Made by a program: the position numbers and the translations under genes. The notes under the pieces were generated by a model. That model was not told the DNA's origin. It was given only the letters and a program-made list of their open reading frames with translations, and made no database searches. From assembly GCA_965645245.1 (NCBI GenBank), contig OZ287082.1, positions 806,001-870,000 on the forward strand: a DNA stretch of 64,000 bases. Reading direction: 5' to 3'. The DNA comes from Massalongia carnosa. Lineage: Eukaryota. Of the stretch, positions 11,142-47,600 are shown piece by piece; position 1 is the first letter of the stretch; the number at the start of each line of letters is the position of its first letter.

Positions 11142-11523
11142 TTGTCTTTCCACTTCTGTCTTTTGTTTATTTGACTAATCGTCATAATTTCATGAATGAT
11201 TCAGTGACTTTTTCAATTTTCTTGTGAAACGATACTCTTTAAACTTTTTAATTAACTTTAAGTTTTCTGTGATTAGACTTCGTATATATTATCCAGTCTG
11301 AGAGGTCTCTGGAATTAGTTCAAACTTGTATAAGCTTGCGCGTTTCTTTCGTAATTACACTGCAATTATTATTCAAAAGGGTTTAGCGTACTTGCTAAGT
11401 CTGATTCATGAAAGGGCGGCGTTTATGACTTCTTGAAGGAATTTTTAGATCGATACGATACACGCGTCAATTTCGGCGTGAGAATATGGGGAAGTAATAA
11501 GGGGAGCCTATTTTTCAGTTGCC

Positions 11524-18892: not shown

Positions 18893-18904
18893 GACCTGTG
18901 TGAG

Positions 18905-19823: not shown

Positions 19824-20325
19824 AATGGGAGAATGGGGAGCAATTGAACAAGGCGAGAAACTTGTATAAGTAGTGACTGAAAGAATGTGGATCTGTGACC
19901 TTTCTTATAGACAAGGAAAAGACTGTCCCTCCTTAGCCAGTGTCCACTCTGATGTCTCAACAGAGAAACCTGTTTGCTTAACATGCTTGTTTGCCATGAT
20001 GAGAATTTCAACTTAGGCTTTTTCAAGGGTCCAATTGACCAAAATGAAATTGAGCGCAGGGTTCTTCCAATTTGATTTAACCGGCCTTGGGCCGATTAAA
20101 TAATAAGAGGCAACTGCCGCACAATCTCACCTAGTGCCTTAATGAGGCATAATTGCCAAAAAGAAAGGTCTTTGTGCCTTCGATCAATGAGTTTACTAAG
20201 CTCTTTGATGTCCGATGGATTTTGTATTTTTGCGTGTCCAGAATTCAATCGCGGTTGAAACTGACGCTTTGATGATATTTGTACCAATGGGGCGCTCAGG
20301 CCCAGCAATATACTTTTTTGCCATC

Positions 20326-20715: not shown

Positions 20716-21500
20716 CGGTGTAGTACGATCAATGTGTTCATGCTCTTTCTAACACGCAATTTTTGTGCTTCTGACAAGAAATCGCTGTGTACAGAAGAGA
20801 GAACTGATTGATGTGATTTGAGGGATCGTTTCTAAAGACACAGAAAGATTTTAGTCATGTGTCTACGATTCATTGAATAGGAACGATGCTTAGCTGATTG
20901 CACTGCGATGCTGCGGATTAAAAGCTTCGATTCGTTTTAAATCGATAGCACCCTTCCGGGCTCATAACCTGTTGAAATAGGTATATGACTATGGCTATAT
21001 GGCTATGTAATAATAAAGGTATGTATGACCGTGATGTTAAGGATGAAGAGTTGCTATGCAGCAATCTTTTCCTATTACTGGTCACCCTTCTAAGCGAGGT
21101 GATCTTATCTTATCTTGGGACTAAGCCTAATGCGGCATCTACGGTTTCCGTAGATCATCTGTCAATCTAGGGCAGCCGTAGGTGCTATGTTCATTGAATT
21201 GATAGGTGTTCATTGTGCTGGTAGGAATTGGATATTCAACAAATAGTCACTCTTACTATTTTTCTTAAACAAATTCAGCATGCAGTATAATAGCATTTTA
21301 AGACGAGTAAACCTAATTCTATCGATAATGCATTCTACAGTACGAAGTGAACCGCGTGCACAAAGCTCTTCAGCCTTGCTGCAGCTGCACCTGTCCTTCC
21401 TTTTCAGCTCGTCCGCCCCTCAGCCTTCCGTCTTTTATCGTGTGTTGAACTCCTCAATCATCCTCCCTTTACGTCTCCGCAAACTTCGCTCACCTTCCAC

Positions 21501-24500: not shown

Positions 24501-25900
24501 GCAGATTGTGAGGCTGCTGCTCGATTACGGCGCCGTTTTCAATGCTCAGGATCTAGACGGTGATAACGCACTACTTATATTAGCTTCTTGTAGAGGCGAC
24601 GAGCAGATTGTGAGGCTGCTGCTCGATAACGGCGCCGACGTCAATGCTCAGGATCGAGACGGTGATAACGCACTTATATTAGCTTCTTGTAGAGGCGACG
24701 AGCAGATTGTGAGGCTGCTGCTCGATAACGGCGCCGACGTCAATGCTCAGGATCGAGACGGTGATAACGCACTTATATTAGCTTCTTATAGAGGCGACGA
24801 GCAGATTGTGAGGCTGCTGCTCGATAACGGCGCCGACGTCAATGCTCAGGATCGAGACGGTGATAACGCACTTATATTAGCTTCTTATAGAGGCGACGAG
24901 CAGATTGTGAGGCTGCTGCTCGATAACGGCGCCGATGTCAATGCTCAGGATCCAGACGGTGATAACGCACTTATAATAGCTTCTAATAGAGGCGACGAGC
25001 AGATTCTGAGGCTGCTGCTCGATAACGGCGCGGCGCCGACGTCAATACGCCGAAGGACATTTGTAAGGCACTCAAGGTTTCCGGTGACAGTGACCGTGTC
25101 GAAGTCGTCAAGCTAGTTCTAGAGGCCGGTTCTAATCTCAAATCTCTTGATTGTGACTATGATTCCTTCATGCATCTCCTTGCCCTTCAAGGTCATACGG
25201 ATTTATTGCGCTTAATCTACGATCAATACTATGAAACTCCACTTCTGCTTGATCTACACGGTGGAACGCCACTTCAGCTTGCCGCCAGAGGCGGGCATTT
25301 CAAAGATTTTCAGTATCTCCTCAGTCTAGGCTTTGACCCTGCAATGACTGATGCAAAGAGAGAAAACCTGTTACACTATGCTTCTTCTGGAGGTTCATTG
25401 GAGATTCTCAACGCAGTACTACATATGGGCTGTCTCTCCCACACAAAGAGCGAACATTGGAGCCCAACTCACTGGGCCTGTAGGAACGGAAATCCTCATC
25501 TCGTGGAGAGACTGATCAAGGAAGGAATCCAAAGTGACAGCGTCACCGTCCTCAAGCCAGAAGGCCAATGGAGCCCTATCGCCATCGCCATATTCCATGG
25601 AAAAGGAAAGATGCTTAAAGAGCTTTCCGAACATTCTATGTCTCTACTAGACACAGGCGAAGATACTGTGCGACTCCACGGTAAACGTCACGAGGGTTAT
25701 TTTTGCAATGGCTGCTTTTATGTGAGTGAATAGCTTGACAAAACCTAAACACAACTCACATTATCTAGGATATCTACGGACCGCGCTTCCGCTGCAGCAC
25801 ATGTTCAGATTTTGATTATTGTTTTATATGCAACCTTTTCTTAAGTCATCGACATGAGAATCACGAATGGAATTGTTTCGAACCTTTTATGGAAGACTAA
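21501..25900 (+). CDS. Fungal NLR: HeLo-like/SesA-like N-terminus, NACHT, ankyrin repeats, ZZ-type zinc finger; frameshifted at 25026-25035
   Basis: MDPISTTASIIAILQLS N-terminus, Walker A GIPGSGKT, Walker B VVIDAVDEC and many ANK repeats. Predicted introns 21911-21964, 22823-22874 and 25722-25768. Last exon IYGPRFRCSTCSDFDYCFIC. Confidence 0.92.
24110..25030 (+). repeat. Near-identical 99-bp ankyrin-repeat units
   Basis: Repeated gagcagattgtgaggctgctgctcgataacggcgccgacgtcaatgctcag... Confidence 0.93.
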
Positions 25901-25927: not shown

Positions 25928-28900
25928 TGTTAGAATGTACAAATCAGGCTACTTCATTTCAGCCGCACTCACCTTCTACCGCACGAGTATGACGCACGCT
26001 AATGGCTAGCCGTATCGCTAGTCTAATACTAGGATACCGTACATTGTCTATAAATCTAGCTATTCCCACTATATAGAACAAAAGCAAGCGTTCTATCTTC
26101 TATCTACTATACTACCTTTTGAAAGGTTATGAGCCCGGCCGCAGGGCGCCTCTTTACATGTATTTGCTTGTCTTACTTTACCTACCCTAACACAAGCCTC
26201 CTTACCGTTGTGGAGGGGTGGAGTGGAACTCCACCGGGTCGGTGATGAGTCAGGTGATTGGTCATGTGGTCGGGTGCTGGCGTCTTGGCGTTCCGGTTAT
26301 ATGAGTCTTTTTCTCGCACTTTCCTTCTCATCTTTCGGGATATCCATCTTCGGATCATACTGCTATCAACACATACAGCTATCATAGACACTTTCGTTCA
26401 TACAGCTAGTCGGCCATTGATGGGCATGACGATTTATTCATCGATGCAGTGAGGCTCTGTTGATTTGGTCATTTGTTTGTTTGTTTCATCCTTCTATCGT
26501 TCGCCACCACCCAGTTTATCCCTTCACACCGTCGCAAACAATTACCGTCGCGAATAATCTCCTACAAAAAATCCGACAAAAATCGACACATGAAATAGTC
26601 AGCAGTGTTTGAGATGGCTAAGCACTACTATCGGGCGCCCGGCTTCTTCTTTGCCCCTTACTAAACGAACGCTAACAAAGATTTTAACAGGCACCTCCTT
26701 ACACTTCGTTTCGATGTCTCGGATGATCTACATTCCCAACAAAAAACCGGGAATGTGACATCCAGATGTCTCGGATGATCTACGTTCCCAATAAAAAACC
26801 GGGAACGTGACATCCACTTCACTTTGATGTCTCGGATGATCTACATTCCCAACAAAAAACCGGGAATGTGACATCCAGGTGTCTCGGATGATTTACATTT
26901 CCAATACAAAACCGGAAATGTGACATTCACGTCGATGTCTCGGATGATCTACATTTCCAATAAAAAACCGGGAATGTGACATCCAGATGTCTCGGATGAT
27001 CTACGTTCCCAACAAAAAACCGGGAATGTGACATCCATTTGGATGAAACGAAATCTCCCTGCAATCGATTTTGCCCTCTATTCATAGTCAGCATCTGCGT
27101 ATCAGTTATAAGACTGCAGGATTATGGCTTCGAGCAACAAAAAACGCTCTCGATTTATCAATCCCAAAGGCACAACTAAACGCCTCAAATCTATCTTTGC
27201 ACCTGCATCTGCTTCTGCATTTAGATCTATTATATCAATCACTGCCCCATTCCTACGTGGCACTCTTGCCGAGATCCAATGACTCTCAGAGCCTCAACCA
27301 AATAATAGGCCGGCAATAAGGCTTGAACGAGATTCTCAACATACATTACAGGCGGCTAGTGCGCCAATCATTGCTTTTCTCTTAGAGGATAACTCAGATT
27401 AATCAAAATTGGATTGCTTTGTACCATCATCCCTGAGCCTCCAGTCACTCCCGGTCAGTCCACATCAAAATCGGACCTAGAACCGCCCAGCGACTGTGAT
27501 CCTTTCAGTCTAAGAGCCAGAACCAAGTCACCAAGCACTTATAATAGCACTCCGTCGGAATCCGGTAAAACCAAACACCAGTTCAAGCCAGTCCGTTAAC
27601 AAGGACAATCCATCAAGCTCTTCCAATAAACCCTTTCCATCATGAGTGAAAAAATCTCTGGGTCGGGGTCCTATAGCGCTATTGATAGGATCCCTAAGCT
27701 AGTGGACCACGAGGGTTATCCAGCATGGAAGCGAGCCATGCGGGATTGCCTCAAAATGATAGATATTTGGATCTATTGTGATAACACCCAAGCTGCACCA
27801 CGCCCAAACGCTCCCAATGATGGCTTCAACAAATGGAAAAAGGGCCAAGATAAGGCCTGCACTGCTCTTCGATTAGCTTGTGAAGGAAATGTCTACACCG
27901 ATATAGAAGATCATACTACTGCTTCCGTCGCCTGGGACCTGCTTGAGTCAAACTATAAGCCTCGCGGTTCGGGATTCCTCAATGACACCTTCAGAAAATT
28001 AGACAGCCTTATCCTATCGGATTGCAGCAGCCCTGCAGACTACGTTACCCAATTTCGCGCCACGGTCAATAAGCTTCGCACCTTCTCAAGCAAGCTAAGC
28101 CTGGACGAAAACTGGCTTATCTATCGCTTCCATACCAATTTAGGCATCGAATACAACAGCTATTTCCAACGATACGCTCAGGATCATGATCCTTTCAATG
28201 AAATCGGTGAACCCAAGCACACGTTAAGTCAGGCTATGCAGCATTTCCAAAACACGGTGACCAACCCAAGCAAGTCCAGCGATAAGGCCATAATCGCAAT
28301 GGCAGCTGTTTCAAACGCTCAAACCCAAGCAGGAGCACAATCCGGAACAGCCCATTCTCGAATCATCACCAAGACCATCAAGTACTGCAACCACTGCCGA
28401 AAGGACTATCACGTAGAGAGCGAGTGTCGTGAAAAATATCCACACCTCGTTAACCAAGACTCACAGCGTAAGTCCAATAAGCGTCGCAGGAATTCCAAAA
28501 GTCATGGTCAAAGTCAAAAGCCAACCGGAAACAATGACTCAACCAAAGGAGCCTTCTGCGCCTACATGGCCACCGCGGATATAACCAAAATATCTAAGCT
28601 CTGGATCTGTGACTATGGAACTAGCCAACATATTACCCACGATCGCTCCATCTTCACCTCATTCAAGACATCCGATTGCCCACCAATTCAAGGTATTGGA
28701 GGAGTATTAATTCCCAAAGGAATAGGTAACGTCATGTTGCGGTGTGCCGGTAACGAGGGTCTTCGGGAGTTCCCTCTTTTCGATGTGTAATACGTTCCGG
28801 ACGGAGGCCTAAATCTCATCTCCAAGGACAATTACAACGAGATGGATGGCCCCTGAAGATCGTACCAGAGGGAATTGAAATCGGGAACTATGGTATCACC

Positions 28901-31298
28901 GCTCGCCGCCAGGACAACAATCTGTATATCCTGAACATGTGGAACATCTCTGAAGCCGCTCTCGCTCTCGCTGCAATTAATAGCGAGGCGATAAAAATGT
29001 GGCACGCTCGTTTAGGCCATCTTGGAAATCAAAACATTCTCAAGCTCGCTGGCATGTCAAAAGGAATGGACCTCATCAAGCCCCCGCCCCAAGACGCCTA
29101 TCCTCCGTGCGCCATCGCTCAGTCCCAAGTAGAACCACACCGGGCCCCCATCCAACCAGGCAAGCACCCGCTGGACTTAATTCACAGCGATGTCCAAGGA
29201 CCTTTCCCAGAAGCCTTGAACGGCGCCAAATATATGGTGATCTTTCTTTGCGATTTCGATAAACGGTCCCACGTCACCTTACTGCGCGTCAAAAGCGGAG
29301 TCCTTCAAGCTTTTAAAAACTACAAGAAGCAAAATGAATATGGGGACAAACGAATTAAGCGCTTGCGATCGGACTGTGGGGGTGAGTATGACTCCAAGGA
29401 CTTCGAGAATTTCAGAAACGAGCATGGCATTCAGTGGGAACCTACCGTACCGGGAAATCCACCCATGAACGGGACAGCCGAGCGCCTATGTCAAACGCGT
29501 CACAAGTTAGCCAGCACCATGCGAGAAGGCGCTAAACTCGACATCAAATATTGGGCTGAGATAGTTCTCACTGCCAACTACCTAAGAAATCGACAACCAA
29601 CTGCGGGACGCTCCATCACCCCCTACGAGTCTCACACCGGCAGCCCACCAGAACTAGGACATCTAAGGATAATAGGACAGACTGGCTATGCGCAAAATCG
29701 CAAGCCCTCCACCGGATGGAAGAAATTTCAGGAACGAGCCACCAAATGTACTTTAGTAGGATACGAAGGCGATCACATCTATCGAATGATAAATCCAGGG
29801 GGCGCGGTCATGCGTTATTCCAATGTTTAGTGGATGGATAACAATCCCCCAACTCCTCCTTCCTTATCATTCTCTCAAATTAAAAGAGCCCTACATGTTG
29901 GACAGTCAGGACCGCCCACAAGAAAGCAAAAAATTACCCATCATACGGACGCCCTTCATACGGACTTAATCGACGCTCATGAATCCATAGAATCAATTCC
30001 CACTGGACCTCTTCCATCAAACGCTGGACAAGAGGCATTGGCAAACCAACGGCCCATTGAGCCTCGGTCCCAGGCAGATATTCTCTCTAAGCACCCAAAA
30101 CTTCGTGCCCCCTCGCTTGACCCACTAGCTCTCTTGGCTCTTCTTGCTCGAGCCAATGACCCGGAGCCATACAAGCCTAAAACCTATAAACAGGCCGTAG
30201 AGAGTCGGGAGGAAAAGAATTGGCGAGGACAATGCAGGAAGAAATTGACTCTATCAACGAAAATGATACCTGGATCCTCACCTTCCTGCCCCCGGACCGC
30301 AAAGCCCTGCGAGGCAAATAGGTTTACAAAATCAAACGAGGCCCGGCTGGCGAGATTCTTCGTTACAAGGCTCGATGGGTAGTCAGAGGCTTTGAGTAAC
30401 GTGAAGGCATTGACTACAATGAGACTTTTGCTTCAGTGGTGAAGCCAATGAGCTAAAGCCATCTTCGCTATCGCTGCAGCCAATGACTGGGAAATTCACC
30501 AAATGGACGTAAAAACAGCCTTCTTGTACGGAAGGGTGGACGAGGAAATCTACGTGGAGCAACCAACCGGTCTGGATGACGGGTCAACGAGAGTTTGCAA
30601 GTTAAAGAAAGATCTTTATGGCCTGAAACAGTCGTCTAGAATCTGGTATGAAACGATCACTACTTTTTTCAAGTCTCATGAATTCGTTCCAGTCAACGCC
30701 GACCTTAGCGTTTTCGTTAAAGAAGGGGTTATCGTAGCCATTTATGTCGATGATTTAATCATCACTGGCTCTTCTTCTTCCGAGATACAATGTGTCAAGA
30801 AACTGCTGAGTGACGAGTTCTCGATGGTTGATTTAGGCCCTATCAATTATTACCTGGGCATGACGATAACTCGGGATCGGGCTAATAGGATTCTTCGCCT
30901 TGGTCAGCAGGCCTATCTGGAAAAAATACTACGCGACCAAGGCATGTGGGACACTAACTCCGTGGCTACTCCGATGGATGGGCGACTGGAGGCTGCACCA
31001 GAGGGCCATCAGGCCACAGATGACTCCCGCCTCCGCTACCAATCAGCGGTGGGCTCTCTCATGTATGCTATGCTAGGCACCAGGCCTGACTTAGCCTACG
31101 CCGTAATGGTGATCAGCCGCTATGCCTCGAACCCGACCGACACGCACTGGAAGGCAGTCAAACGCATCTTTCGATACATCAAGGGCACTCTTCCGTTGCA
31201 GTTAACATACAAAGGTCACTTACAACCCTTGAACGGTTACACTGACGCGGATTGGGCCGGAGATCATCAGACCCGAAGGGCTACCTCTGGCTTCGTGT
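25928..31298 (+). mobile_element. 3'-truncated, degenerate Ty1/Copia element (Copia-2)
   Basis: 5' LTR 25928-26124, PBS ggttatgagccc at 26125-26136. Gag/PR 27642-28790 (CNHC..H...C), IN 28937-29830, RT 30503 onward (IYVDD). Ends inside RNase H (YTDADWAG..ATSGFVF). Confidence 0.92.
26713..27037. repeat. About 52-60-bp tandem repeat, 6 copies, each self-complementary, in the Copia-2 5' UTR
   Basis: Unit gatgtctcggatgatctacattcccaacaaaaaaccgggaatgtgacatcca. Confidence 0.9.
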
Positions 31299-34200
31299 TT
31301 CCTTACGGCCTCCTCTCCGCATTATTTGATAATTTGGTACTGTTCCGCAAGCCGCCTTCACTTTTTCGGGTTAAATCTAACCGCATGAGGTTGGATCTAA
31401 CCAAATGAGGTAGTCTTGCCTAAAGTAGCAGGGGAGTTCTTTCAGTACTATATAGCTTAAGAATACGTAGTGTGACTGCTAGCTCGTACGCATCCTAGAT
31501 GAGTAGTAAAATAGGTGTTTACTAGTTAAGATTTACACAGGTGGGGGGAGAGGGTCGGGGCGGGACTGTCTCTAAACATCTCGCTTTCTATTCTGTTTCT
31601 CATTTATGTGTTCGATAGAAGCCTGTGAGTTTCTGTTAGATGAGTAATTTTCTTAAACATGATAAATACTATAATCTTATCAAGAGTGTTCAGAAGTGCT
31701 GTGAGACGATAGACGTTCGGAATTGTATAGTCGTCTTTGTCTATTGTTGCGGGGTCATACGTGGTATATAGATGATCAGGTTACAGGGCAGGCCTGTGTA
31801 AACGAGAGTCGGGATAATAGGGGCTTTTTGCTGTCGTTTTCTCCTGCATCTTCACATCTCTACACATACATCTCAAACCTTTACATCTTTTCATATATCT
31901 ACATATACACCTCGACACAAATTATCTTTGTTACATAGTCAAAGTGACAACACATTTATCTGTGCAGTTATCTGGTCCAGTTCATCACATGTTTGTCACG
32001 GTTTAACTACATCCACCCAAGGCCAATTAAAGGGAAGTACGGCACTACCGGCGCACTAACCGATTCCGTTACTCAACCCTTTTAGCGGTGGATTAGACGG
32101 ACATATAGACCGAAAGCTCCGGGACCTTAAACCTTATTCTATCTACGGAAACCGTAGATAGCCTGTCACTATTAAGCAAACATATGGGCAATGAACGAAG
32201 GTCTGAAAGAAATAAAAGGGACGTATCGGAACGACCTTTCAAGGCAAACACAAATAGATAAAAGGGACAAAGGCAGGAAGACTATTTGACTAAATTGTTC
32301 ACTTATTAATAGAGATATAAGCAGCTAGATCGGGCCAAGCGATTATCTACGTAGATTCCTAGAGAGGGAACCTTTTTCTTGTTTCCTCTCTGCATCATTG
32401 ATATTTTCTAGTGCATAGTTTCCTAGTAGATAGTCAATTCCACATCCTGGTTGAACCGTTATATTGTCTTTTCACTTCTTTCTTTTGTTTATTGGACTAA
32501 TCGTCATAATTTCATGAATGATTCAGTGACTTTTTCTATTTTCTTGCGAAACGATACTCTTTTAACTTTTTGATAAACTTTTAGTTTTCTATGATGAGAC
32601 TTCGTATATATTAATCGTCGGCTCGCTTACCTCCGGGATCCGACTTGAAAAAATGTCGACCGCATTTTAGTCGGGGAAAGCGCTTGCATCCCGGAAAGCG
32701 GTTGCATCCCCCAAATTCAAATTTCTTCATCTTTTTGATCATTGACCAACAACCACATTAATTATAAATTAGCCGATACCGTACATAGCTTGAAAATCAT
32801 TTCTCCGACCCAACTGATTATCAATTCAAATCCTTTCCTTTCGAATCAATCCCCTGAACCAATCTCCCCTTTCGAATCATGGATAACGACGCCTCTCTTG
32901 TCTCCACTTTCAACCCCATGGAAAGATTGAAAAAGGTGAAGGAATTTCTGACAAATCATCCCCAAGAAAGTAAAACGGCTGCAGCTAGAATCTACAATAT
33001 CAACGTCAAAACTTTGACGTCTTCCATTCGTCGACCAGAAGGGAGGAAAATTGGAGGACAAAATCAGATACTGAGGGAGCATGAGGCAAGGTCAATTACT
33101 GGCTTTATTAAGTTATTGATTCATGGAATTCTTCCTACACATCAGATGGTTTTCAAGGCTATTGTAAGTCTGAAAATGGCCTATAACCCCCTCGAGGTAG
33201 GCCCGTCAAGAAGATAGTTTCGGAGCTGGTGGAAATATAACAAACTTCATAAAATAAGTGTCACGGTTCTACTCGGCACTACTTCGGTAGACTGGAGCGG
33301 AACAAGCCACAAGCCGAAGTCACGGGATCGCGTGTGCGCGCTAGACTCATCGCGGCATTCACGGTTTCCATAGCTGGTCAATGCTCGAACCTTCTAGATC
33401 CTTCCACGAGTCGGTCGAGGGCTAGGGGCCGCTGGACTATATAGGAGCGAGATTTGTCTTTCAATTGATCATTTCTTCTTCATCTTGATTGTATTCGTTT
33501 CTAGTGTCCCTATGACTTGTCTCTAGGTAGATCATAACATTACAATAAAGATCGTCTTCATCTATTATCCTACGTGAGGGATGTAAAAGAACTCACCGAA
33601 TCGAGGACTGAAGAAAGAACGACCCTTTCATTAGGCAAGTCGTACGAACCAGAGCCAGAACCACCAGAACCTTCAGAACCACCCAGACCCAGAAGAACCA
33701 TCCTCGGTGGCGGATGTAAAAGAACCCCACATCGGAACGACAACGAGCGACCCTTGCACTAGTTAGGCCAGTCGTACGAACCAGAACCAGAACCAGAACC
33801 AGAACCACCAGACACCAGACACCAGAAACCAGAAACCAGACAGCAGGCACCAGACACCAGACATCAGACCCCAGACACCAAAGCACTGACTGCACCGAAA
33901 TTACCGGAAAATCGACGAAAGAGCTTGGAAAGACACGGGAAACCTTGGCAAAGAATCGGAAGCACTTCAGCTAATGAACCAGTTTCACCGCTGACTACTG
34001 ACTGCCTGCACCGCTTGCACCGCCTAGTTCGCGCTCAGGTGATCGCGATTTAAAGCGAAGGGTAGTGTCACGATTCTACACGGCACGACCTCTGCACTCG
34101 GCACCGCCTAGGGCAATCGTAGATGGAACACGCAGGCGCTTTCGATTTCGTTCCCGCAGCTGCTAGAAGGTTCCATGACGACTATACCACATGGGTACTA

Positions 34201-34570
34201 GCGCAGTAGAGGATATATAGGGGCAGGTTCTGGTTGTCGATTGTCTTTTTCCTTCTTCATCTTTATTGTATTCGTTTCTAGTGTCCCTATGACTAGTCTC
34301 TAGGTAGATCATAACATTACAATCAAGATCATTTACCTTCGCTATCCTTCGTGAGGGATATAAAAGAACTCACCTGAAGCACGAAGACACTGAAAAGAAA
34401 CCGAACCTGAACCAAAATGATGAACTGAAACGAAACCAGAAGAACCAGAGACCGCCACTGCGTTGGCACCGAACCGAACCGAACCGAACCGAACCAAACC
34501 CAGAAAACGAACCTAGAAGAACCGAAGGAAGCCTCCCCTACAGTGATGGCGCGACCCATGATAATCGAAG

Positions 34571-35788
34571 ATGACCTCCCAACTAGAAGGGAGTCCATCA
34601 TTTCCAGAAACCCGAGGAACTGACGACGAACTAGAAGTAGCTGAACCTATGATGGTGGAGAACGTGCGACAATTGAAGGCATGGATGGAGCATGACCCAC
34701 AAGCGGTATCCGACATGTTCCAGGATCTGAAGGCCACCTACCTCGACAATCTCATCCGCCATGGTAACGCGGTCGGAAAGATGGAATGTTTTCGAGATAG
34801 GATAAACCAGCTAGAGGGAATTGTGGAGTACCAGAAGGAGGAACTCAGGGAGGCACGGCGTCAGGCCACCAAGGAACCAACCCGAGAATCACCACGCCCT
34901 CGCTCTCCTTCTCACACACCCAGCACCCAGGTGACCGATGGAACGGACAAGAAGAAGTCCATGAAACTCCCTGACCCACCCATCTTTACCGATGGAAAAG
35001 AGATTTCCATTGACCATTGGCTAACGAAGATGCGGAGCAAACTAGCGGCCAATGATGACCACATGCCGACAGAAGTCCTAAAGAAGGCATACGTGGAGAA
35101 CCGGGTCGGTGGCGAAGCTATGGGTCACCTTGAACCTCGACTTCGGAAAGGTGCCATCAGACCCTTTACGACGGCCGAGGAAATGTTCGACCAATTAGAA
35201 CGCATATACGGCGACCCTAACCGCAAGCGGACCGCCATGAACAATTTCCGATCGCTCAAACAAGGAAGCAAGGACTTCAACACCTTTTGGGCCGAGTTCC
35301 AACGTCTAGCAGCTGAGTTGGACCATAACGAGGAAACGCTAATCGGTGAATTGAAGTATAAGCTCTCTTGGGAAATGAGCAGACAATTGGCTACCGGCGA
35401 CCTGGAACCGACCGACCTATACGAATTCGCGCAGAAGTGTCAACGCCTTTACCAGAGCCTCAAGGAGTCGGACCGAAGTAAGGCCAGCATGGAACGGTTC
35501 GCCGAGAAACGTGCTAGCATGGCTCAGAGCACCCCGAGCACCTCCGCTACAAGGACAACCACGACGGCCACCACCAAGACCTACGTGCCGCCCCGCCCGA
35601 CCTCCAACCCATCTACACCAAGGACCACTTACTACATGTCAGACGAGGAAAAGGAGCGACTGACAATGGAAGGTCGTTGTTTCTTTTGCAAGGAAACGGG
35701 ACATTTATCTAGGGACTGCGAAAAGAAGAAGAATCGGCCAGCGAGAATACAGGAGATCGCTGAGGAAGCCAATTCGGGAAAAGAATGA
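34571..35788 (+). CDS. gag: Gypsy gag (retrotransposon gag domain, CCHC knuckle)
   Basis: Intact 405-aa ORF with KLPDPPIF, FWAEFQRLA and CFFCKETGHLSRDC. Confidence 0.94.
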   Translation: MTSQLEGSPSFPETRGTDDELEVAEPMMVENVRQLKAWMEHDPQAVSDMFQDLKATYLDNLIRHGNAVGKMECFRDRINQLEGIVEYQKEELREARRQATKEPTRESPRPRSPSHTPSTQVTDGTDKKKSMKLPDPPIFTDGKEISIDHWLTKMRSKLAANDDHMPTEVLKKAYVENRVGGEAMGHLEPRLRKGAIRPFTTAEEMFDQLERIYGDPNRKRTAMNNFRSLKQGSKDFNTFWAEFQRLAAELDHNEETLIGELKYKLSWEMSRQLATGDLEPTDLYEFAQKCQRLYQSLKESDRSKASMERFAEKRASMAQSTPSTSATRTTTTATTKTYVPPRPTSNPSTPRTTYYMSDEEKERLTMEGRCFFCKETGHLSRDCEKKKNRPARIQEIAEEANSGKE

Positions 35789-38700
35789 CCTCCACCGAAG
35801 GCGCGGATGGAGGTGAACCTTTGTTGATTTCATCTAGCTGTTTACCAGGCGATTTGTTTACGGATGAACCTCTAGTCATACAATGTAGGCTAGGTAACAG
35901 CGAAGAAATAATAGTAATGGGACTGTTGGACACGGGTGCAACAGGACACGCATTCATTGATGAAACGACTGCGCGTGAAGTTTGCGAAAAGCTTCAGATT
36001 TCCCCTCAGAGACTAACACGACCGAAACCGGTGAAAGGGTTCGATGGTAAAAGAGGTAAAGACATTACTCATGCCATCTATCCTACTCTTACCGTGCAAG
36101 ACCATATGGAAACGGTCGCCCCCCTGTTGATCACCAAACTCGGACAACACAAGATGATCCTCGGAAAACCGTGGATGAGGAAGCACGGGGTGATCATAGA
36201 CATGGCCACCGACCAGATAGTCTTTTGGCCCGGACACTGCACGCATTCGGGTATATCGAAGCCACCATCAGAAAAGAAGATAACGAAGACGACAAAAGAA
36301 CCCGCTGAACCGAAGAAGGCCATGAAAATCCTGACCAGAATGAATCAAAACGAACCTGGAAAAACCAGGCCAGAACCGGCAGTTTCAACCAAGACGATGT
36401 CGAACAAGGGACTATCAGAAGGACTATCAGACTCCGGAATCAAGGTTAAACCGACTACCGAGGAAAAGCCGCTAGAGATGGCGATGATAGGGGCCGCTGC
36501 GTACCGATTATTGTCCAAACAAAAGGACGTTGAATTATTTTCCATCTCATTGAAAGACATCGAGTACCAGCTGAATAAAGAAGACCGTCCCCCTACTGAC
36601 CCGAAGACCGTAGTTCCCCCAGATTACCATGAATTCCTGGATGTCTTTTCAAAGGCTGCATCCGACACGCTGGCACCTCACCGCCCCTATGATCATCGAA
36701 TCATTCTGGAAGGCGGAAAAGATCACGGACATAGCCCTCTCAGAAGCATGTCCCAAAAAGAGCTGGAATTCGTCAAGAAATACCTGGAAGAGAACCTCCG
36801 AAAAGGGTTCATTGAGGCTAGCCACGCAGCTTGTTCGTCCCCAATTCTTTTGGCCAGAAAGCCCAATGGAGGACTTCGCTTTTGTGTCGACTATAGAAGG
36901 CTGAACCAGCTGTCAAAGAAAGACCGCTATCCAATCCCGCTGATCGAGGAAACACTGGCCCAGCTGAAGGAAGCTAAGATCTTTTCAAAAATTGACATCC
37001 GACAGGCGTTCCACAAGCTCCGAATGGCCATGGAATCTGAAGACCTGACCACGTTCAACTCCCGTTTTGGCGCTTATAAATACAAGGTATTACCGTTTGG
37101 ACTTTCCGGAGGACCGTCGACCTGGCAGCACTTCATCAATGATGTGTTGTTCGATTATCTGGACAAATTCTGCACGGCTTACCTGGATGACATTCTGATT
37201 TATAGCAAGAACCTGAAAGAGCATCGGGAACATGTGCGGGCCGTTTTGACAAAGCTTCGAGAGGCCGGACTTCAGGCTGACGTAGACAAATGTGAATTCC
37301 ATGTGACGGAAACGAAATATCTGGGACTGATCATAGGAGTTGATGGCATTCGCATGGACCCGGCCAAAATCAAAGCTATTCAGGAATGGGAAACCCCCAC
37401 CTGCCTACGTGAAGTTCGGTCGTTCATTGCTTTTTGCAATTTCTATCGTCGGTTCATCAGGGGTTTTTCAAAAATTGCCAAACCATTGAACGCCCTTACA
37501 AAGAAAGAACGGATATTCGAGTGGACCCCAGCATGTGAAAAGGCTTTCAGGACGTTACAGAAACGGATCGGTGAAGCCCCAATCCTCATACATTTCGACC
37601 GGAACAAGCAGTGCTACTTGGAAACGGACTCTTCGGACCATGTCAATGGAGGTGTGTTGTCCCAGATAGGAGACGACGGAGAACTTCACCCGGTAGCCTT
37701 CTTTTCAAAGAACATGAGCCCAGCGGAATGCAACTACGAAATCTATGACAAGGAACTGCTAGCAATCATTCGATGCTTTGAACAATGGAAGCCGGAACTC
37801 GAAAGCACGGAGTTACCAGTGAAAATCTTCACCGACCATCGTAGCCTGGAGTATTTTATGACCACGAAGAAACTAACTAGACGGCAAGCCCGATGGGCGG
37901 AGTTCCTTTCGGAGTTCAATTTCGTCATCACCTACCGACCTGGAAAGAAAAATGAAAAAGCAGACGCGCTAACCCGAAGGCCAAACGATAAGCCCCACGA
38001 CGATGATGATGAAAGGCAGCAGCACCAATTGCAGACGCTACTGCCCCCGGAAAGATTGGAACTTCAGCCCATTGAAGAAGCGACGGAACCAGAAGAAACG
38101 ACACGGAACGATGAACCCGACCCCGAACTCCCGACCCTCGACGAAAGAATCAAACAGGAAAACCTCGAAGACGAACTCTGCACCCGAATACGAAACGCGA
38201 TAAAGGAAGGAAACTCTGATGACGACTCTCTACCGGACATAAAGAACTGCACCGAGAAGAACGGACTGCTATACAAACGAAAGGGCTTATGGGTGCCGGA
38301 CAAGAAAGAGACCATCCTAGAGGTTATTCGGCAAATACACGACCAAGTGGCGGTAGGGCACCCCGGAATGGCCAGAACGGTGAATGTAATCGGCCGGAAC
38401 TACTATTGGCCAGGCATGAACAAGGACATACGCCGCTATGTGCGAAATTGCCATGTGTGTCGACGAGCCAAGGCCCCAAGGGACAAGTATAATGGACTGC
38501 TGAAACCGCTACCCATACCAGAAAGACCATGGATGGACATCACCCTAGACTACGTTACCGGCCTCCCGAAGAGCAATGGAAATGACGCCATCCTGATGGT
38601 AGTAGACCGACTGTCCAAAGAGAGACACTATATCCCATGCACATGTGATGAAGAAGGAACTACGTCCGAGGCCACAGCAAAACTCCTAGTGGACAACGTA

Positions 38701-39615
38701 TGGCGCTATCATGGACTCCCAAGCAGCATAGTATCGGACCGGGGCCCCCAATTCACATCAACAGTTTGGAAAGCCTGGTGTAAAATCCTTGGAATCACAG
38801 CGAAATTGTCCACAGCCTATCATCCAGAAACAGATGGACAAAGTGAAATCGCGAATCAGGAAATGGAACGTCACCTTCGGAGTTTCGTGAACTATAATCA
38901 GGACGACTGGGCGGACGTTCTTCCAATGGCGGAATTTGCCGCAAACAGCGCACCATCGGCCACTACCGGACTGTCACCATTCATGGCCACGAAAGGTTAT
39001 GAACCAAGGATGAGTTTCGACCCAATCGAACTGTCGTCAGAATCAACAAGGGAAAGGCTAGCCAATGGAAAAGCCCGAGCGATTACCAAGGACATGAAGA
39101 AAATCTGGGATTTCGTCAAACAAAATATGGGAAAGGCCCAAGAAAGGCAAATAACAGCAGCTGACCGACACCGAAGAGACGTCTCATATGAAGTAGGCGA
39201 CATGGTATGGTTATCTACTCGAAATATCAAGACAGAACGCACGTCCAAGAAATTGGACCATAAGATGATTGGACCCTATCGAGTCAAGAAGTTAGTAGGG
39301 TCATCCTGTCAACTAGAATTGCCACCATCAATGAAAATTCACGATGTCTTCCATACCAGCTTGCTTCGAAAGGCCTCAGACGACCCACTCCCAGGTCAGA
39401 TAAACGAGCCACCGCCACCCATAGTCGTAGAAGGTAGCGAAGAATGGGAACTTGATGACATTCTGGACTCACGAAAGCGGTACCGAAAGGTGCAATACAA
39501 GGTCAAATGGAAGGGAATTGACGAGGACCTGACATGGTATGATGCCGAAGGTTTCGAAAATGCAAAAGAAGTGGTGGAGGACTTCCATCAACGAAACCCA
39601 AATAAACCGCGATGA
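35785..39615 (+). CDS. pol: Gypsy pol (PR-RT-RNaseH-IN-chromodomain), intact, in the -1 frame relative to gag
   Basis: Motifs LLDTGAT, YLDD, ETDSSD, VSDRGPQF, DGQSE and WELDDILDSR..YKVKWKG. Slippery heptamer G GGA AAA at 35776-35782. Confidence 0.96.
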   Translation: MTSTEGADGGEPLLISSSCLPGDLFTDEPLVIQCRLGNSEEIIVMGLLDTGATGHAFIDETTAREVCEKLQISPQRLTRPKPVKGFDGKRGKDITHAIYPTLTVQDHMETVAPLLITKLGQHKMILGKPWMRKHGVIIDMATDQIVFWPGHCTHSGISKPPSEKKITKTTKEPAEPKKAMKILTRMNQNEPGKTRPEPAVSTKTMSNKGLSEGLSDSGIKVKPTTEEKPLEMAMIGAAAYRLLSKQKDVELFSISLKDIEYQLNKEDRPPTDPKTVVPPDYHEFLDVFSKAASDTLAPHRPYDHRIILEGGKDHGHSPLRSMSQKELEFVKKYLEENLRKGFIEASHAACSSPILLARKPNGGLRFCVDYRRLNQLSKKDRYPIPLIEETLAQLKEAKIFSKIDIRQAFHKLRMAMESEDLTTFNSRFGAYKYKVLPFGLSGGPSTWQHFINDVLFDYLDKFCTAYLDDILIYSKNLKEHREHVRAVLTKLREAGLQADVDKCEFHVTETKYLGLIIGVDGIRMDPAKIKAIQEWETPTCLREVRSFIAFCNFYRRFIRGFSKIAKPLNALTKKERIFEWTPACEKAFRTLQKRIGEAPILIHFDRNKQCYLETDSSDHVNGGVLSQIGDDGELHPVAFFSKNMSPAECNYEIYDKELLAIIRCFEQWKPELESTELPVKIFTDHRSLEYFMTTKKLTRRQARWAEFLSEFNFVITYRPGKKNEKADALTRRPNDKPHDDDDERQQHQLQTLLPPERLELQPIEEATEPEETTRNDEPDPELPTLDERIKQENLEDELCTRIRNAIKEGNSDDDSLPDIKNCTEKNGLLYKRKGLWVPDKKETILEVIRQIHDQVAVGHPGMARTVNVIGRNYYWPGMNKDIRRYVRNCHVCRRAKAPRDKYNGLLKPLPIPERPWMDITLDYVTGLPKSNGNDAILMVVDRLSKERHYIPCTCDEEGTTSEATAKLLVDNVWRYHGLPSSIVSDRGPQFTSTVWKAWCKILGITAKLSTAYHPETDGQSEIANQEMERHLRSFVNYNQDDWADVLPMAEFAANSAPSATTGLSPFMATKGYEPRMSFDPIELSSESTRERLANGKARAITKDMKKIWDFVKQNMGKAQERQITAADRHRRDVSYEVGDMVWLSTRNIKTERTSKKLDHKMIGPYRVKKLVGSSCQLELPPSMKIHDVFHTSLLRKASDDPLPGQINEPPPPIVVEGSEEWELDDILDSRKRYRKVQYKVKWKGIDEDLTWYDAEGFENAKEVVEDFHQRNPNKPR

Positions 39616-40294
39616 TCGCACTAATCGCATCGGTCACTTAGTCTCAGATTAAGCGGAGATAACGCGGACATTATCGCGGTCAGGTGACTCGCGATCTAAA
39701 GCGGGGGGTAGTGTCACGGTTCTACTCGGCACTACTTCGGTAGACTGGAGCGGAACAAGCCACAAGCCGAAGTCACGGGATCGCGTGTGCGCGCTAGACT
39801 CATCGCGGCATTCACGGTTTCCATAGCTGGTCAATGCTCGAACCTTCTAGATCCTTCCACGAGTCGGTCGAGGGCTAGGGGCCGCTGGACTATATAGGAG
39901 CGAGATTTGTCTTTCAATTGATCATTTCTTCTTCATCTTGATTGTATTCGTTTCTAGTGTCCCTATGACTTGTCTCTAGGTAGATCATAACAATTTGGAA
40001 GAATCATTGAAAGAATTCGATTTAGAAGCATCTTTTCAACCATGAGATGCGAATAATTGGTAGAATGCGGGGTATGCGGGGTATGCGGGGTATGCGGGGT
40101 ATGCGGGGTATGCGGGGTATGCGGAGTAAGCGGAGAATCACGAGGGTCAGGGGGTCAGGGGGGTCAAGGGAAATGATTTTGACGACGGTGATGATGACGG
40201 CGATAATTTTCAAGCTATGTACGGTAGCGACTGATTTTTAATCAATGTGGTTGTTGGTCAATGATCAAAAAGATGAAGAAATTTGAATTTGAGG

Positions 40295-40422
40295 GGATGC
40301 AACCGCTTTCCGGGATGCAACCGCTTTCCGGGATGCAACCGCTTTCCGGGATGCAACCGCTTTCCGGGATGCAACCGCTTTCCGGGATGCAACCGCTTTC
40401 CGGGATGCAACCGCTTTCCCGG
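40295..40422. repeat. 18-bp tandem repeat, 7 copies, inside the right TIR
   Basis: gggatgcaaccgctttcc x7. Only 2 copies in the left TIR. A 9-bp atgcggggt array lies at about 40065-40125. Confidence 0.92.
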
Positions 40423-40746
40423 ACTAAAATGCGGTCGACATTTTTTCAAGTCGGATCCCGGAGGTAAGCGAGCCGACGATTATTCAGTCTGAGAGGTCTC
40501 TGGAATTGGTTCAGACTCGTTTGAGCCTGCGCGTTTCTTTCGTAATTACACTGCAATTATTATTTCAAAAGGGTTTAGCGTACTTATACTGAGTCTGATT
40601 CATGAAACGGCGGCGTTTATGACTTTTTAAAGGAGTTTTTGGATCGATACGATGTACGCGTCAATTTCGGCGTGAGAATGTGAGGTAGTAATAAGGGTAG
40701 CCTATTTTTTAGTTTCCCTCAATTTTTTCTGTTTAATAACTTCCAT

Positions 40747-41002
40747 TGTCACGATTCTACCTTTTGCCTTTAGGAACTAAGCCTAATCGAGCACCTACGG
40801 AAACCGTAGACGGACCTGTCGGCCGGCCGGCAGGAGTCACGAGATAGCGCGGAAAACTCTTTCGCGACCTTACTAAATGGGGAATAGAGAGCGCGTTGCT
40901 TTATAGGGAACGAGTCTGACTTTTCGAGTCTTTCTTTCCTCTTTATCTTTATTGTTTTCGTTCATGGCGTCCCTATAACTAGCCTCTAGGTAGACCGTAA
41001 CA
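40747..41002 (+). mobile_element. Solo LTR related at its ends to LTR-A and LTR-B
   Basis: tgtcacgattctac...taggtagaccgtaaca. Absent at the paralogous site near 12100. Confidence 0.8.
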
Positions 41003-41118
41003 TTTATGTCCTACGCTCAATAATTGGTTGAGGCTCACTGTCAAGTGTTATTTGGGTCGAGATTGAGGTATTATCGGATGACTGATTGAGTTCAGGTCTT
41101 AACATGCAGTTTTATAAT

Positions 41119-41383: not shown

Positions 41384-41870
41384 TACGCCGCGCAACGGGT
41401 CTGGTTGGTCGGGTTTTTTCTAGTCTAACCCGACCCGCTACCGGGTTGGGGAACCAGTAGGGCTCAACCTGCTGGGTTGGGGTCCTGTTCCCGGGTTAAC
41501 CCGTTTGACCCGTTCGACCCAGTGATTTTTTATGTCAATTTTAAAAGTGTTTTTTAGACGTTTTAAACATAATTGAAATTCCGAAAACCCCGAAAATTCC
41601 GAAAATTCCGAATATTCGTCGTTAAGAAATGATGAATAGTAAGCAAAATTTTTATCACTTTAAAAGTCATATTTTCGTCGAATTTTCATATTTAATTTAT
41701 AGAAAAAACTGACCGGGTTGAACGGTTTAACCCGGAAATCCGCATAAAAAATCCGAACCTGTAAGGTCGGATTCTAGTGGGTCCAACTCGACCCGAAAAC
41801 CCGACCTAAACCAGGCGGGTTTAACCCAACCTAAACCAGGCGGGTTTAACCCAACCCATTGCGTGGCGTA
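41384..41870. mobile_element. hAT-type MITE, long form
   Basis: TIR tacgccgcgcaacggg / cccattgcgtggcgta. TSD tatgtgat/catgtgat. Confidence 0.88.
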
Positions 41871-41944: not shown

Positions 41945-42347
41945 TACGCCGCGCAACGGGTTAGGTTTGGGGAGGGTTTTCGGGTCAGGTTCGGGTTTTT
42001 TATGAGAGTTTCCGGGTTAAACCGTTCAACCCGGTCATTTTTTTTTGCAAATTAAAATATGAAAATGCAACGAAAATGTAACGTTTAAACTATAAATTTT
42101 GTGCTGACTAATCAACATTTCTTGATGACTAATATTCAGAATTTACAGAATTTTAAATGTGTTTAAAACGTCTAAAAAACACGTTTAAAGTTGACATAAA
42201 AAATCCACCGTGTCGAACGGGTCAATCGGGTTAACCCGGGAATGGTTCCCCAACCTACCGGGTAGAGCCCTATAGGTTCCCCAACCCGGTAGCGGGTCGG
42301 GTTCGACTAGTCAAAACCCGACCCAACCCGACCCGTTGCGCGGCGTG
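41945..42347. mobile_element. hAT-type MITE, long form, opposite orientation to 41384-41870
   Basis: Same TIRs. TSD tctgcgcg/tctgcacc (6/8). Internal sequence is inverted relative to the neighbour. Confidence 0.85.
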
Positions 42348-44639: not shown

Positions 44640-47600
44640 AGGCTATTTATCTGCTTTATACATACCAAGAAATCAAAGCTGGGAATTCGTCGAAAAGCGT
44701 GGATCATCTGCGATCGAGGTCGCAAGGCCAGACCGCAAGGCGAAGAACGACGTCACAGTAGCAGTAGACGAATTGAGTGTCCCTTTTCCTGCATCGCTAC
44801 CTTCGTGAACGACGTCGCCTGGCATTTGGAAGTAGTCAAATCGGAACATAATCATGAAGCTAGCTTGAGTGGAGCACATCCCACGCATCGAAGAATCGCC
44901 TTGATCGAGCATAAGGAGGAGATTTCTCGTCCATTGACTGTACAAACCAATCCGGCCAACGTGCTGTCGAGTCTTCGTATTGGGGCTCCGACTCCGAATT
45001 CGGTCAGATGGGATGAGAATGGCAATCCTGAAGTCGTCAATCCGATGTTTATTAGTCGAGACATCTACAACTTTCGAGCTCAATTGCGACGAATTGCTTT
45101 TGGCTCATTGACTCCGATACAAAGCCTGATTTAGGAGTTTGACAAGGGCGACTGGGTATACGAGTTGCAGACAAATGATGAAAATCAGGTGAGTTTGACA
45201 AGGACAGGACAACTGAAGTTGCAGACTAATGATGAGAACCAATCAGATCGTCAATCTTTTTTCAGTAAATGCAGTACTCAGACTCTTTTGAAGGCAAATC
45301 CAGAAGTTTTAGTGATGGATTGCACCTACAAAACCAACAGATTCAAAATGCCTTTGTTGATCATCGGCGGACAGACCGCATTGCATACTACGTTCTATGT
45401 CGCCTTCTGCTTCATGCATGAGGAGAGAAATGAGTCTTACATCTGGGCCATGACTCGTTTGAAAGTCTTGTACTCGCAGCTAGAACTTCCTTCTCCAACT
45501 ACGACAATCACCGACATGGATAGAGGTTTGATGTCGGCAATTGAGCTGATTTTTCCATCTACCAGTCATTTATTGTGTATCTGGCACATCAACAAGAATG
45601 TCCTAGCTCATTGCAAGAAATCATTCAGTACTGAGGCATGGGAAGTCTTTTACGGACGATGGAAATCACTTATTAAGGCTGATTCCGAGCCTAATTTTGA
45701 AGAGATGTGGGGACAGTTTCGAATCACATACAATCGTACACATGCTGATTTGGTGAAGTATCTTTGTTGAACAAAAAATCAACCAGGCATACGGCAGCGG
45801 GATGCAGGAGAAGAGGGTCTAGGGCTATCAAGGATAGGCAAAGAGAAGTGCTTGGCAAACGTGATGCAGGTACTCCGTATTTCCAGTGAAGATACTCCAA
45901 ATTTAGCTATCTGCTGAACTGAATTCTGAACGACTGAATAGCTAAATTACATGAGGAATCATCGTCTCTTTATACTGCTTGAGGGCCTCCATCTCGGCCT
46001 ATATCAAATGCATGAACCTGCTTCCTTTGAACCTTTTCAGCTGGGCAAAATACACCTCGTTGCTGACCGGAGACACCGAGACACTCAGTGATCATGAACA
46101 GCTGAATTGCCTCCGAAATGTAGCATTCTTGCTGCATACTTTTGCCTCCTCGTAGTTGCCGAAGTCGTGCCGAAATCTGAAGCTTTTCGCATATAGCATA
46201 TGATTGCCTAATCTGGAAATTAGTAAGCAGGAGGCAAAAGAACCTCGGTCGCAAATATTCAGGTATCTCGGCAAATTCCAATACTCCCACTCCGAGTATC
46301 TGAATGGCTTCATACCCTCGCATGCCCGAAAACGAATTAAAAGAAATCCTCCGCGTTTTGCCCATCTGAACACGATGCTCAGGTAGGCCATGGGCCCTCG
46401 TGGGCCGATGTGGTTGCGATAAACTATCGCTAACTCTCTAGGTCTCCTTCATACCTAGTAGAGCACGTCCGCGTTCAAAAGCCGCCTTGGTCAAAGGCTT
46501 TGTCAGAATATCAGCTGCCATCTCGTTGGTGGGATCATAGCTTTTTCTGATACTCCAGCTGGTCGGTCCTGGGTTCCGTGGGGGTGGCGGCAGTCAGTGC
46601 TGCATATCCATCAATCGAGTTGAAACTGGGTGTGCATTTTCCATCCCATATTTCGAAATGAAGTTGTTGATGTATACTGACTGATCTAGTGTTAGATTTC
46701 TAGATTTTCGGTTTCTCCGCACTCGCATTCCCAAGATGTGGTCCACCTCTCCCAAATCCTTCATCTTAGACTCCCGTTTTAGCTGTGCCTTGACTGCATT
46801 GATGCGGGATATTTTGGCGGTAAAAATGAGAAGATCATCGACGTATACTGAGATAATGACGCCGGCTTGGAGGTTTATGAACACACAATTGTCGGCTGAG
46901 ATTGGTTCGAATCCAATGGATCTCAGATACCTTCTGAACTTTCTGCTCCAGATTCGGCCGGATTGCTTGAGACCATAAAGGCCTTTTTGCAGTAGAAGGG
47001 CCTTATTCTTTTCGTTCGGAACATCCATTCCCTCTGGTATTTCCATGTAGATTTCTTCTTCCAACTCACCTTCTAAATAGGCATTTGAAACGTCCATTTG
47101 ATGTGCTTCCAGGTTCAGTAACGCAGTAATTGCCATTAACATTCTCAGAGATTCGAACCTCAAAGTGGGTGTAAATGTCTCTTCGTAATCAATGCCATAT
47201 TTCTGACTGAAACCTCTAGCACAAAGTCTGGCCTTGAACCGCTCAATAACTGCGGTGGATGTGTATTTGATTTTGAACACCCATTTCGAAGTTATTAGCT
47301 CACGGTTTTTCGGCCTCGGCACGATAATAAACGTGCGTTTCCACCGCAGCGCTTCCAGCTCTTCTTCCGTTGCCCCCCTCCATTCACGGCGATTTGGTCC
47401 AGTCATGGCTTCCTTATAGGTAGCCGGTTCAGGCAATCGAGCTATATAAACGATAGCCATTGGTGCTTTTGACTTATCAAATGCCTTGGAGTCATACGGC
47501 TTTTTCGTGCGTCTTGACCGGGAAGATGCTGCTGAAACAAGCTGTTGATTTTTCGGTGAGAGCGTGGCTTTCTGCCCCCTTTTTGAATTCTGTGCTGGCT

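Follow-up and report, generated by a model that had tools for sequence, protein, structure and literature searches.

A composite retrotransposon with three long terminal repeats (LTRs) was found in a 64-kb stretch of the Massalongia carnosa genome (contig OZ287082.1, positions 806,001 to 870,000), which is contiguous and free of N and is called here the window; the analysis was made at the level of the sequence. The element consists of an LTR of type A, a 526-bp non-coding unit, an LTR of a different type (B), an intact gag and a pol with a chromodomain, a polypurine tract (PPT) and a further copy of LTR-A. Each of its two primer-binding sites (PBSs) is the perfect complement of a short sequence in the LTR type that it does not directly follow, the 3' ends of the two LTR types are nearly identical, and the composite lacks a target-site duplication (TSD). 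Tentatively, and as the leading one of several explanations considered, the composite is read as a heterotandem which would have been formed when the cDNA of a short non-coding element recombined with a resident A-gag/pol-A copy, at the 5' LTR/PBS of the latter.

The three LTRs and the single base that marks their U5 (unique 5') part are located as follows.

33259..33539, plus strand: LTR-A, 5' copy, 281 bp, with the ends TGTCAC...ATAACA (TG...CA) and a TATATA at 33438-33443
39712..39992, plus strand: LTR-A, 3' copy, identical to the 5' copy at 281 of 281 positions
34066..34316, plus strand: LTR-B, 251 bp, with a U3 (unique 3' part) unlike that of LTR-A, a last 65 bp matching LTR-A at 63 positions and a TATATA at 34214-34219
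33518, plus strand: U5 marker; the outer LTRs both have T here (39971 in the 3' copy), LTR-B has A (34295)

The identity of the outer copies, which extends over 33257-33539 against 39710-39992 (100%), and the order of the LTRs bear out what had been described in a first-pass annotation of this DNA. Its statement that LTR-B shares only the last ~70 bp with LTR-A was roughly right for the 3' end (63/65), but a weaker similarity continues upstream (69/80 and 75/100, ungapped) and is also present at the very start (21 of the first 25 bp). The first base of LTR-B is 34066, not 34067. The near-identity of the two types begins 7 nt upstream of a 12-mer predicted to act as primer and extends to the LTR end, and within the last 65 bp the types differ only at 33487 (position 6 of the primer) and at the U5 marker 33518. 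Two solo LTRs of the same family also lie in the window, showing that the family inserted repeatedly in this region: a B-like one on the minus strand at 4885-5154 (77% identity, T allele in the primer, T at the U5 marker, near-matching flanks GCAAG/GAAAG), which is the only other B-like LTR within the window, and one with a third U3 type on the plus strand at 40748-41003 (flanks TCCAT/TTTAT). Comparison of the four LTR types of the family in the window indicated that the U3 is highly variable, while the R (repeat) and U5 parts are common to the family.

The evidence for an exchange between two elements comes from the predicted self-primers and the PBSs.

33482..33493, plus strand: predicted RNA 5' end and self-primer of LTR-A, ATCTTGATTGTA, with the G allele at 33487; pairs 12/12 with PBS2 and 11/12 with PBS1
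34259..34270, plus strand: predicted RNA 5' end and self-primer of LTR-B, ATCTTTATTGTA, with the T allele at 34264
33541..33552, plus strand: PBS1, TACAATAAAGAT, starting 2 nt after LTR-A; perfect complement of the predicted B-type RNA start (34259-34270)
34318..34329, plus strand: PBS2, TACAATCAAGAT, following LTR-B; perfect complement of the predicted A-type RNA start (33482-33493)

When the 40 nt downstream of each LTR were compared with the LTRs, the longest complement was 12 nt in both crossed combinations against 6 nt in both cis combinations, and the chance for a given 12-mer to find its complement in an LTR of ~270 nt was estimated as p ~1.6e-5. The exact crossing reported in the first-pass annotation was thus confirmed, albeit it comes down to one base at each of four sites: one position alone distinguishes the two pairs of primer and PBS (G/T at 33487/34264 and A/C at 33547/34324), each cis pair still matches at 11 of 12 positions with a central mismatch, and the cis fold-back is still present in the minimum-energy fold. 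The predicted duplex energies were -7.1 kcal/mol for both cis pairs versus -11.2 and -13.5 kcal/mol for the crossed ones. The G/C versus T/A combination is a compensatory double change, which supports functional pairing, and this single-base covariation marks the B-type RNA start as the probable partner of PBS1 and the A-type RNA start as that of PBS2. The distance from the TATATA to the primer is 44-45 nt in both LTRs, consistent with RNA starts that would lie at the primer 12-mers. Neither PBS begins with TGG, the complement of the tRNA CCA end (tRNA sequences were not scanned). An unrelated gypsy element at 58066-63999, the second one, which runs off the window and is of the self-priming type (5' LTR 58066-58301, PBS 58303-58313), served as a control: its PBS has a perfect 11-nt cis complement at 58246-58256 with the same spacing of ~57-59 nt. 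Perfect cis pairing thus appears to be the normal state of such elements, and the double cis mismatch in the composite marks an exchange and not a habit of the family. Wherever an exchange falls between positions 33487 (primer) and 33547 (PBS), each PBS comes to lie behind the U3 of the other element, so the crossing is what every heterotandem would show automatically; it results from the join and not from a special design.

In Tf1 of fission yeast, the work of Levin (1995/1996) and of Lin and Levin (1997/1998) is said to have established a mechanism in which the RNA pairs with the PBS through its first 11 nt and is cut by RNase H behind nt 11, the primer being the template for the PBS of the plus strand. 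Secondary accounts of Tf1 self-priming are found in PMC4600332, where S. pombe served as a host for Tj1, and in PMC11042837.

The unit between LTR-A and LTR-B proved to be non-coding.

33540..34065, plus strand: short non-coding internal unit, 526 bp, with a PBS, a leader containing two GGATGTAAAAGAAC copies, ACCAGAC-type microsatellites and a PPT-like end at 34052-34065

No open reading frame (ORF) of at least 80 aa is present on the plus strand of 33540-34065. The first 58 nt of the unit resemble the leader of the autonomous element (34317-34374) at 81%, and the last 37 nt resemble at 87% the stretch that closes with the 3' PPT; the terminal sequence is AAAGCGAAGGGTAG, against AAAGCGGGGGGTAG preceding the 3' LTR. 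Of the leader motif GGATRTAAAAGAAC, the short unit has two copies and the autonomous leader has one, giving 3 matches in the window against 0.05 expected. The matches of its leader and PPT end to the coding element indicate that the short unit is an internally deleted and rearranged non-coding relative of the latter. Elements of the TRIM (terminal-repeat retrotransposon in miniature) and LARD (large retrotransposon derivative) classes have a short internal domain with little beyond a PBS and a PPT and without an ORF, and rely on the proteins of a partner. The core of the short unit resembles such domains, with a PBS and a PPT and no ORF; in contrast to TRIMs, it is seen here between unlike LTRs and not as a free copy between two like ones, its 526-bp core exceeds the classic TRIM cores, and its priming is predicted to proceed from the 5' end of its own RNA instead of a tRNA.

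The coding part, located between LTR-B and the 3' copy of LTR-A, has the following features.

34571..35788, plus strand: gag, 405 aa, with Retrotrans_gag and a CCHC zinc knuckle (zf-CCHC)
35764..39615, plus strand: pol frame, 1283 codons, with RVT_1, RT_RNaseH, Integrase_H2C2, rve, SH3_Tf2-1 and Chromo
35776..35782, plus strand: GGGAAAA heptamer in the gag frame, 4 nt upstream of the gag stop
39698..39711, plus strand: 3' PPT, AAAGCGGGGGGTAG, adjoining the 3' LTR-A

The gene order is that of Ty3/gypsy (gag, protease, reverse transcriptase, RNase H, integrase) with a C-terminal chromodomain, and the protease in the pol frame gave only a weak match below the Pfam cut-off. The heptamer is a plausible and likely candidate for a -1 frameshift site leading from gag into pol. 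Taken together with the PBS complementary to LTR sequence, the domains support the classification of the coding element as a putative Tf1/sushi-type self-priming chromovirus. Both internal regions agree with their initial descriptions, as a chromovirus of the self-priming type with an intact gag-pol and as a non-coding unit with a PBS and a PPT of its own.

The composite sits inside a pogo/Fot1-like DNA transposon (32614-40480) with perfect terminal inverted repeats (TIRs) of ~59 nt and a TA duplication, of which two arms are left.

32614..33258, plus strand: left arm, with the TIR of ~59 nt, two 18-bp subterminal repeats and the first ~114 transposase codons (ORF from 32879/32918, stop at 33215)
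39993..40480, plus strand: right arm, with a 9-bp repeat array, a seven-copy array of the 18-bp subterminal repeat and the TIR

The inverted repeat partner of the left arm is located at 40203-40482, and the 18-bp subterminal repeat GGGATGCAACCGCTTTCC is present in two copies in the left arm and in seven in the right one. A tandem array of ~7-8 copies of the 9-mer ATGCGGGGT adjoins the 3' LTR at 40065-40136, and a contig from another sample (X3, see below) is 36 nt shorter there. The protein encoded in the left arm is 91% identical to aa 1-~114 of P0001, a DDE_1 (PF03184) transposase of 631 aa from another genome found by homology search; the Pfam search with the 112-aa left-arm ORF gave nothing significant (best HTH_28, E = 0.13). 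The TIRs, the TA duplication and this remaining N-terminal part of a DDE_1 transposase place the host transposon in the pogo/Fot1-like group. Near 11288-11291 the window contains an empty paralogous site, the stretch 10836-11523 joining the sequence left of 32614 straight to that right of 40480.

No TSD was found around the composite: the 5' LTR is preceded by ATAAG, whereas the 5 bp that follow the 3' LTR read ATTTG. Contigs of three other runs continue from 33257 into KTKPLAMIRY, corresponding to residues 115-124 of P0001, and no match to residues 115-631 of this protein adjoins the composite; two flanking motifs from other runs had no match anywhere in the window, with up to 3 mismatches allowed. 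With at least 517 codons unmatched, at least 1551 bp of the host transposon are missing exactly at the composite. An insertion guided by the PBS and PPT through microhomology at the junctions was considered and rejected: the AG before the 5' LTR equals the last two bases of the PPT, which is expected by chance in 1 of 16 cases, and the right end has no likeness to the PBS.

The missing TSD together with the loss of at least 1.55 kb is explained by neither of the two routes proposed in the first-pass annotation (recombination in the shared U5, or reverse transcription of a read-through RNA) alone, nor by the two published routes weighed below. An extra step would be needed: the insertion might have been non-concerted or independent of integrase, or recombination with a second A-type LTR in the same pogo copy might have caused a deletion later; alternatively, both features might come from an error of assembly. 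The latter would have joined reads of different copies via the identical LTR-A, U5 or gag/pol and skipped the transposon interior. A missing TSD and missing host DNA are indeed expected from a repeat-mediated mis-join, the family is multi-copy in related samples (several contigs per run over the same positions), and the junctions 33258/33259, 33539/33540, 34316/34317 and 39992/39993 have no read-level support. However, 64 kb of contiguous, N-free and transposon-rich sequence suggests a long-read assembly, both transposon arms, the TA duplication and the flanks, the latter colinear with the paralog at 10836-11523, surround the composite in the correct order and orientation, and a mis-join alone does not give an A-short-B unit, so that an artefact is regarded as quite improbable.

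Recombination of DNA after integration, between separate insertions in the same pogo copy (unequal LTR-LTR or gene conversion), would delete the DNA between them and with it the matching duplication. Absence of a TSD and loss of at least 1.55 kb between the flanks are the signature of the recombinant complexes (Devos et al., 2002, as cited in the part of PMC1950507 used here), which also have three LTRs, no common TSD and lost inter-site DNA, and the window is dense in the family, as seen from the solo LTRs at 4885-5154 and 40748-41003. The outer LTRs of the recombinant complexes described in that part, however, come from different insertions and their middle LTR is chimeric, while in the composite two identical outer LTRs enclose one with a U3 of another type. 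Because of this middle U3, classical unequal recombination of two ordinary insertions is insufficient alone; it would explain the missing TSD only if a composite or another A-type LTR had been there before, and does not explain the order A-short-B-gag/pol-A. Such recombination as the origin of the composite is considered improbable, if slightly less so than an artefact of assembly.

The favoured reading is a recombination of cDNA into a resident copy, for which we infer the identity of the parents, their transcription starts and the route. Two members of one Tf1-like self-priming chromovirus family would have been involved: a non-coding deleted derivative with the native LTR type B and a PBS fitting the T-type RNA start, and an intact autonomous copy with the native LTR type A and a PBS fitting the G-type RNA start. 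The cDNA of the former, either a one-LTR circle or a linear molecule with a single-stranded PBS end, would have been exchanged in a stretch of 28 nt delimited by the U5 marker (33518) and the PBS position 7 (33547), and the outcome would be the incoming unit directly upstream of the resident with one LTR between them. An exchange between the primer sequence and the PBS leaves each PBS behind the U3 and primer of the other element, and the strongest A/B homology (63/65) coincides with the place where the exchange must have fallen. An exchange in the shared R/U5-PBS block, as suggested for the U5 in the first-pass annotation, explains the crossing. Simple nesting of one element in another was discarded, as it cannot place one LTR between two internal regions.

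This kind of insertion has a precedent in Schizosaccharomyces pombe. According to the portion of Li et al. (2022; PMC11042837) drawn on here, Tf1 cDNA inserts without integrase by Rad52 single-strand annealing, ~70% of the integrase-independent and ~4% of the wild-type Tf1 events fall at the 5' LTR/PBS of a resident Tf2, and Tf1/Tf2 tandems with a single separating LTR are found in wild isolates too; the same portion mentions tandem LTR elements in yeasts, bivalves, Drosophila and plants. Compared with the Tf1/Tf2 tandems as portrayed there, the composite likewise consists of a self-priming Ty3/gypsy element with a chromodomain integrase, has a single LTR between two internal regions and the incoming unit directly upstream of the resident, has its junction at U5/PBS homology (PBS 11/12 and U5 63/65 in our case), and switches from resident to incoming and back to resident sequence at or beside the central LTR. 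It differs in the nature of the partner, a 526-bp non-coding derivative with a different U3, and in its PBSs, whose difference by one base makes the junctions placeable within 28 nt; besides, its host is, judging from one run's label only, probably a lichen-associated filamentous fungus. The Tf1/Tf2 tandems are Rad52-dependent according to that source. The experimental frequency in these closest studied relatives favours cDNA recombination over strand transfer during reverse transcription. In the limited literature search, with the supplements of PMC11042837 and PMC1950507 excluded, no description of an autonomous/non-autonomous heterotandem of a self-priming element was found.

Several points weigh against cDNA recombination. 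The resident copy should have retained its own 5-bp duplication, and the flanks are ATAAG versus ATTTG; in contrast to the Tf1/Tf2 tandems as far as they are portrayed in that portion, the resident flanks are not unchanged, with the TSD missing, the host transposon truncated at both LTR ends and the 517 or more transposase codons gone at the site. As the outer LTRs agree at 33518/39971, a single interval of 28 nt would have to hold both exchange points. Finally, the U5 marker of the B-like solo LTR (4885-5154) is T and not A, which weakly favours strand transfer.

Strand transfer would require a single round of reverse transcription from two co-packaged RNAs, as in the template-switching complexes known from Triticeae, rice and maize (Sabot and Schulman, 2007; PMC1950507). 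Self-priming would start on the short RNA, the strong-stop DNA would jump to the 3' R of the autonomous RNA, which would be copied to its 5' end, and a second jump would lead to the 3' R of the short RNA. The R nucleotides 1-11 would be copied after the jump and travel with the U3, and the U5 and PBS would remain with the 5' end of the donor; this would yield U3A/primerG-U5-PBS(T)-short-U3B/primerT-U5-PBS(G)-gag/pol-U3A with identical outer LTRs. Outer LTRs identical at 281/281 positions with an unrelated U3 in the middle are diagnostic of a single cycle (PMC1950507), and the crossing would arise with no need for a pair of crossovers within 28 nt. The model requires a B-native U5 to have T at the U5 marker, as is the case in the B-like solo LTR, and the high A/B similarity starts at the predicted RNA start, which fits a repeated exchange of R-U5 in the family. 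Like the published template-switching complexes, the composite has three LTRs and two internal domains, with the outer LTRs alike and the middle one different, in the order predicted by the R-jump model with two RNAs. The second diagnostic, however, is absent: the published complexes have flanking 5-bp duplications and the composite has none. The former are moreover tRNA-primed Copia or Gypsy elements with two coding partners, while one of the partners here is non-coding, and such complexes are rare in the published data, with 2 template-switching cases in 400 insertions of LTR retrotransposons (PMC1950507, Table 1). The inheritance rule for the R nucleotides 1-11 is our own derivation from the Tf1 mechanism. 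Since priming proceeds from the RNA itself, by its 5' end, an exchange becomes visible in this family as a crossed primer/PBS. Strand transfer is thus a rather unlikely but serious contender, ranked next to cDNA recombination, and the two could not be separated here.

A more specific scenario, rated as unlikely and below strand transfer taken generally, combines two intermolecular minus-strand transfers between a non-autonomous and an autonomous RNA in one particle, in which the exchange would fall right behind the 11-nt self-primer, with a subsequent insertion without integrase-type staggered joining that would have deleted ~1.6 kb of the target. As a whole, the composite fits neither class of the published complexes cleanly and most resembles the Tf1/Tf2 tandems, as these are described in the portion of PMC11042837 mentioned above.

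The composite might also be a replicating family by itself, with an RNA that reads through from the first to the last LTR-A being reverse-transcribed as a unit, so that each transposition of the chromovirus would take the short element along. Identical outer LTRs fit a recent cycle of reverse transcription of the whole unit, and the A-type primer, matching PBS1 at 11 of 12 positions, still folds back. This primer is, however, perfect with PBS2, 836 nt downstream, so the progeny would bear A-short-B at both ends, unlike the 3' end observed here; besides, a TSD is absent, and the tandem must first form by another route. The probability given to a replicating composite is as low as that of an assembly artefact. 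For the same reason the earlier proposal of joining by reverse transcription of a read-through RNA, which needs a pre-existing tandem, only defers the question, and the idea that the short unit is "riding" on the chromovirus as a working unit was not supported.

Material from other samples was also searched for the family. Six listed runs from four studies, none of them recorded as RNA, cover a part of the stretch; the four runs examined consist of short contigs from strains other than the source, which can neither phase the primer, U5 and PBS markers nor span the element. In X1, X3 and X4 the 3' part of the short unit runs into the start of a B-like LTR, followed by a variant U3 (34092 joined to 34179), and the first ~130 nt of the short unit continue into a sequence resembling the end of the gag leader. 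The X1 contig of 307 nt covers 33787-34092, i.e. the short core, the PPT and the first 27 nt of the B-like LTR; X1 also has an LTR of the third type behind the end of pol and the PPT. In X3 a contig joins 34587 (start of gag) to 39706 (PPT region) with 17 other letters between them, which is an independently formed, internally deleted derivative of the same family; in one X3 contig the flank differs by 10 letters over 332 aligned positions (~3%). The contigs of these samples indicate that short derivatives and LTR swapping recur in the family. The summed contig depth was greater over 33904-34405 than over gag/pol and was not used as a copy number. The metagenome contigs yielded 0 loci both for a motif from the LTR-end/PBS junction and for a degenerate U5 motif that takes in the four LTR types of the window.

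The surroundings of the composite are a transposon island: among the 22 ORFs scanned in the window, two other gypsy elements, three copia elements, a Mutator-like element (MULE), a DDE_1 fragment and one NACHT/ankyrin gene were recognized. Apart from the self-priming gypsy used as the control, these and a further repeat are located as follows.

1-4019, 15569-19904 (minus strand), 27630-31408, 45135-45770 and 46594-50542 (minus strand): a gypsy fragment, three copia elements with broken frames and a MULE transposase fragment
21351-25733, plus strand: NLR-like (NOD-like receptor) gene that combines an NPHP3_N/NACHT-type NTPase with a winged-helix domain and a long array of ankyrin repeats; of the 22 ORFs scanned, no other is clearly a host gene
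41385-41761 and 41986-42346: inverted repeat of ~380 nt with 82% identity, more copies of which lie at 56365-56594; probably a foldback or TIR element

Retrotransposons are known to build arrays and to reshuffle their LTRs by means of three-LTR tandems. In the composite from M. carnosa the covariation of primer and PBS, together with the U5 marker, places the exchange points within ~60 nt, or within 28 nt under one model, and these single-base markers make the route testable by haplotypes in the source genome. Should the scenario with two transfers in one particle be true, the composite would provide field evidence, outside of laboratory S. pombe, for the inheritance rules that go with self-priming and for a route independent of integrase in a wild fungus. 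If confirmed by long reads, the missing TSD and the 1.55-kb deletion would represent a natural non-canonical insertion of an LTR element or a deletion driven by the family; otherwise, the composite is an ordinary by-product of a young and active transposon family in a transposon-rich region.

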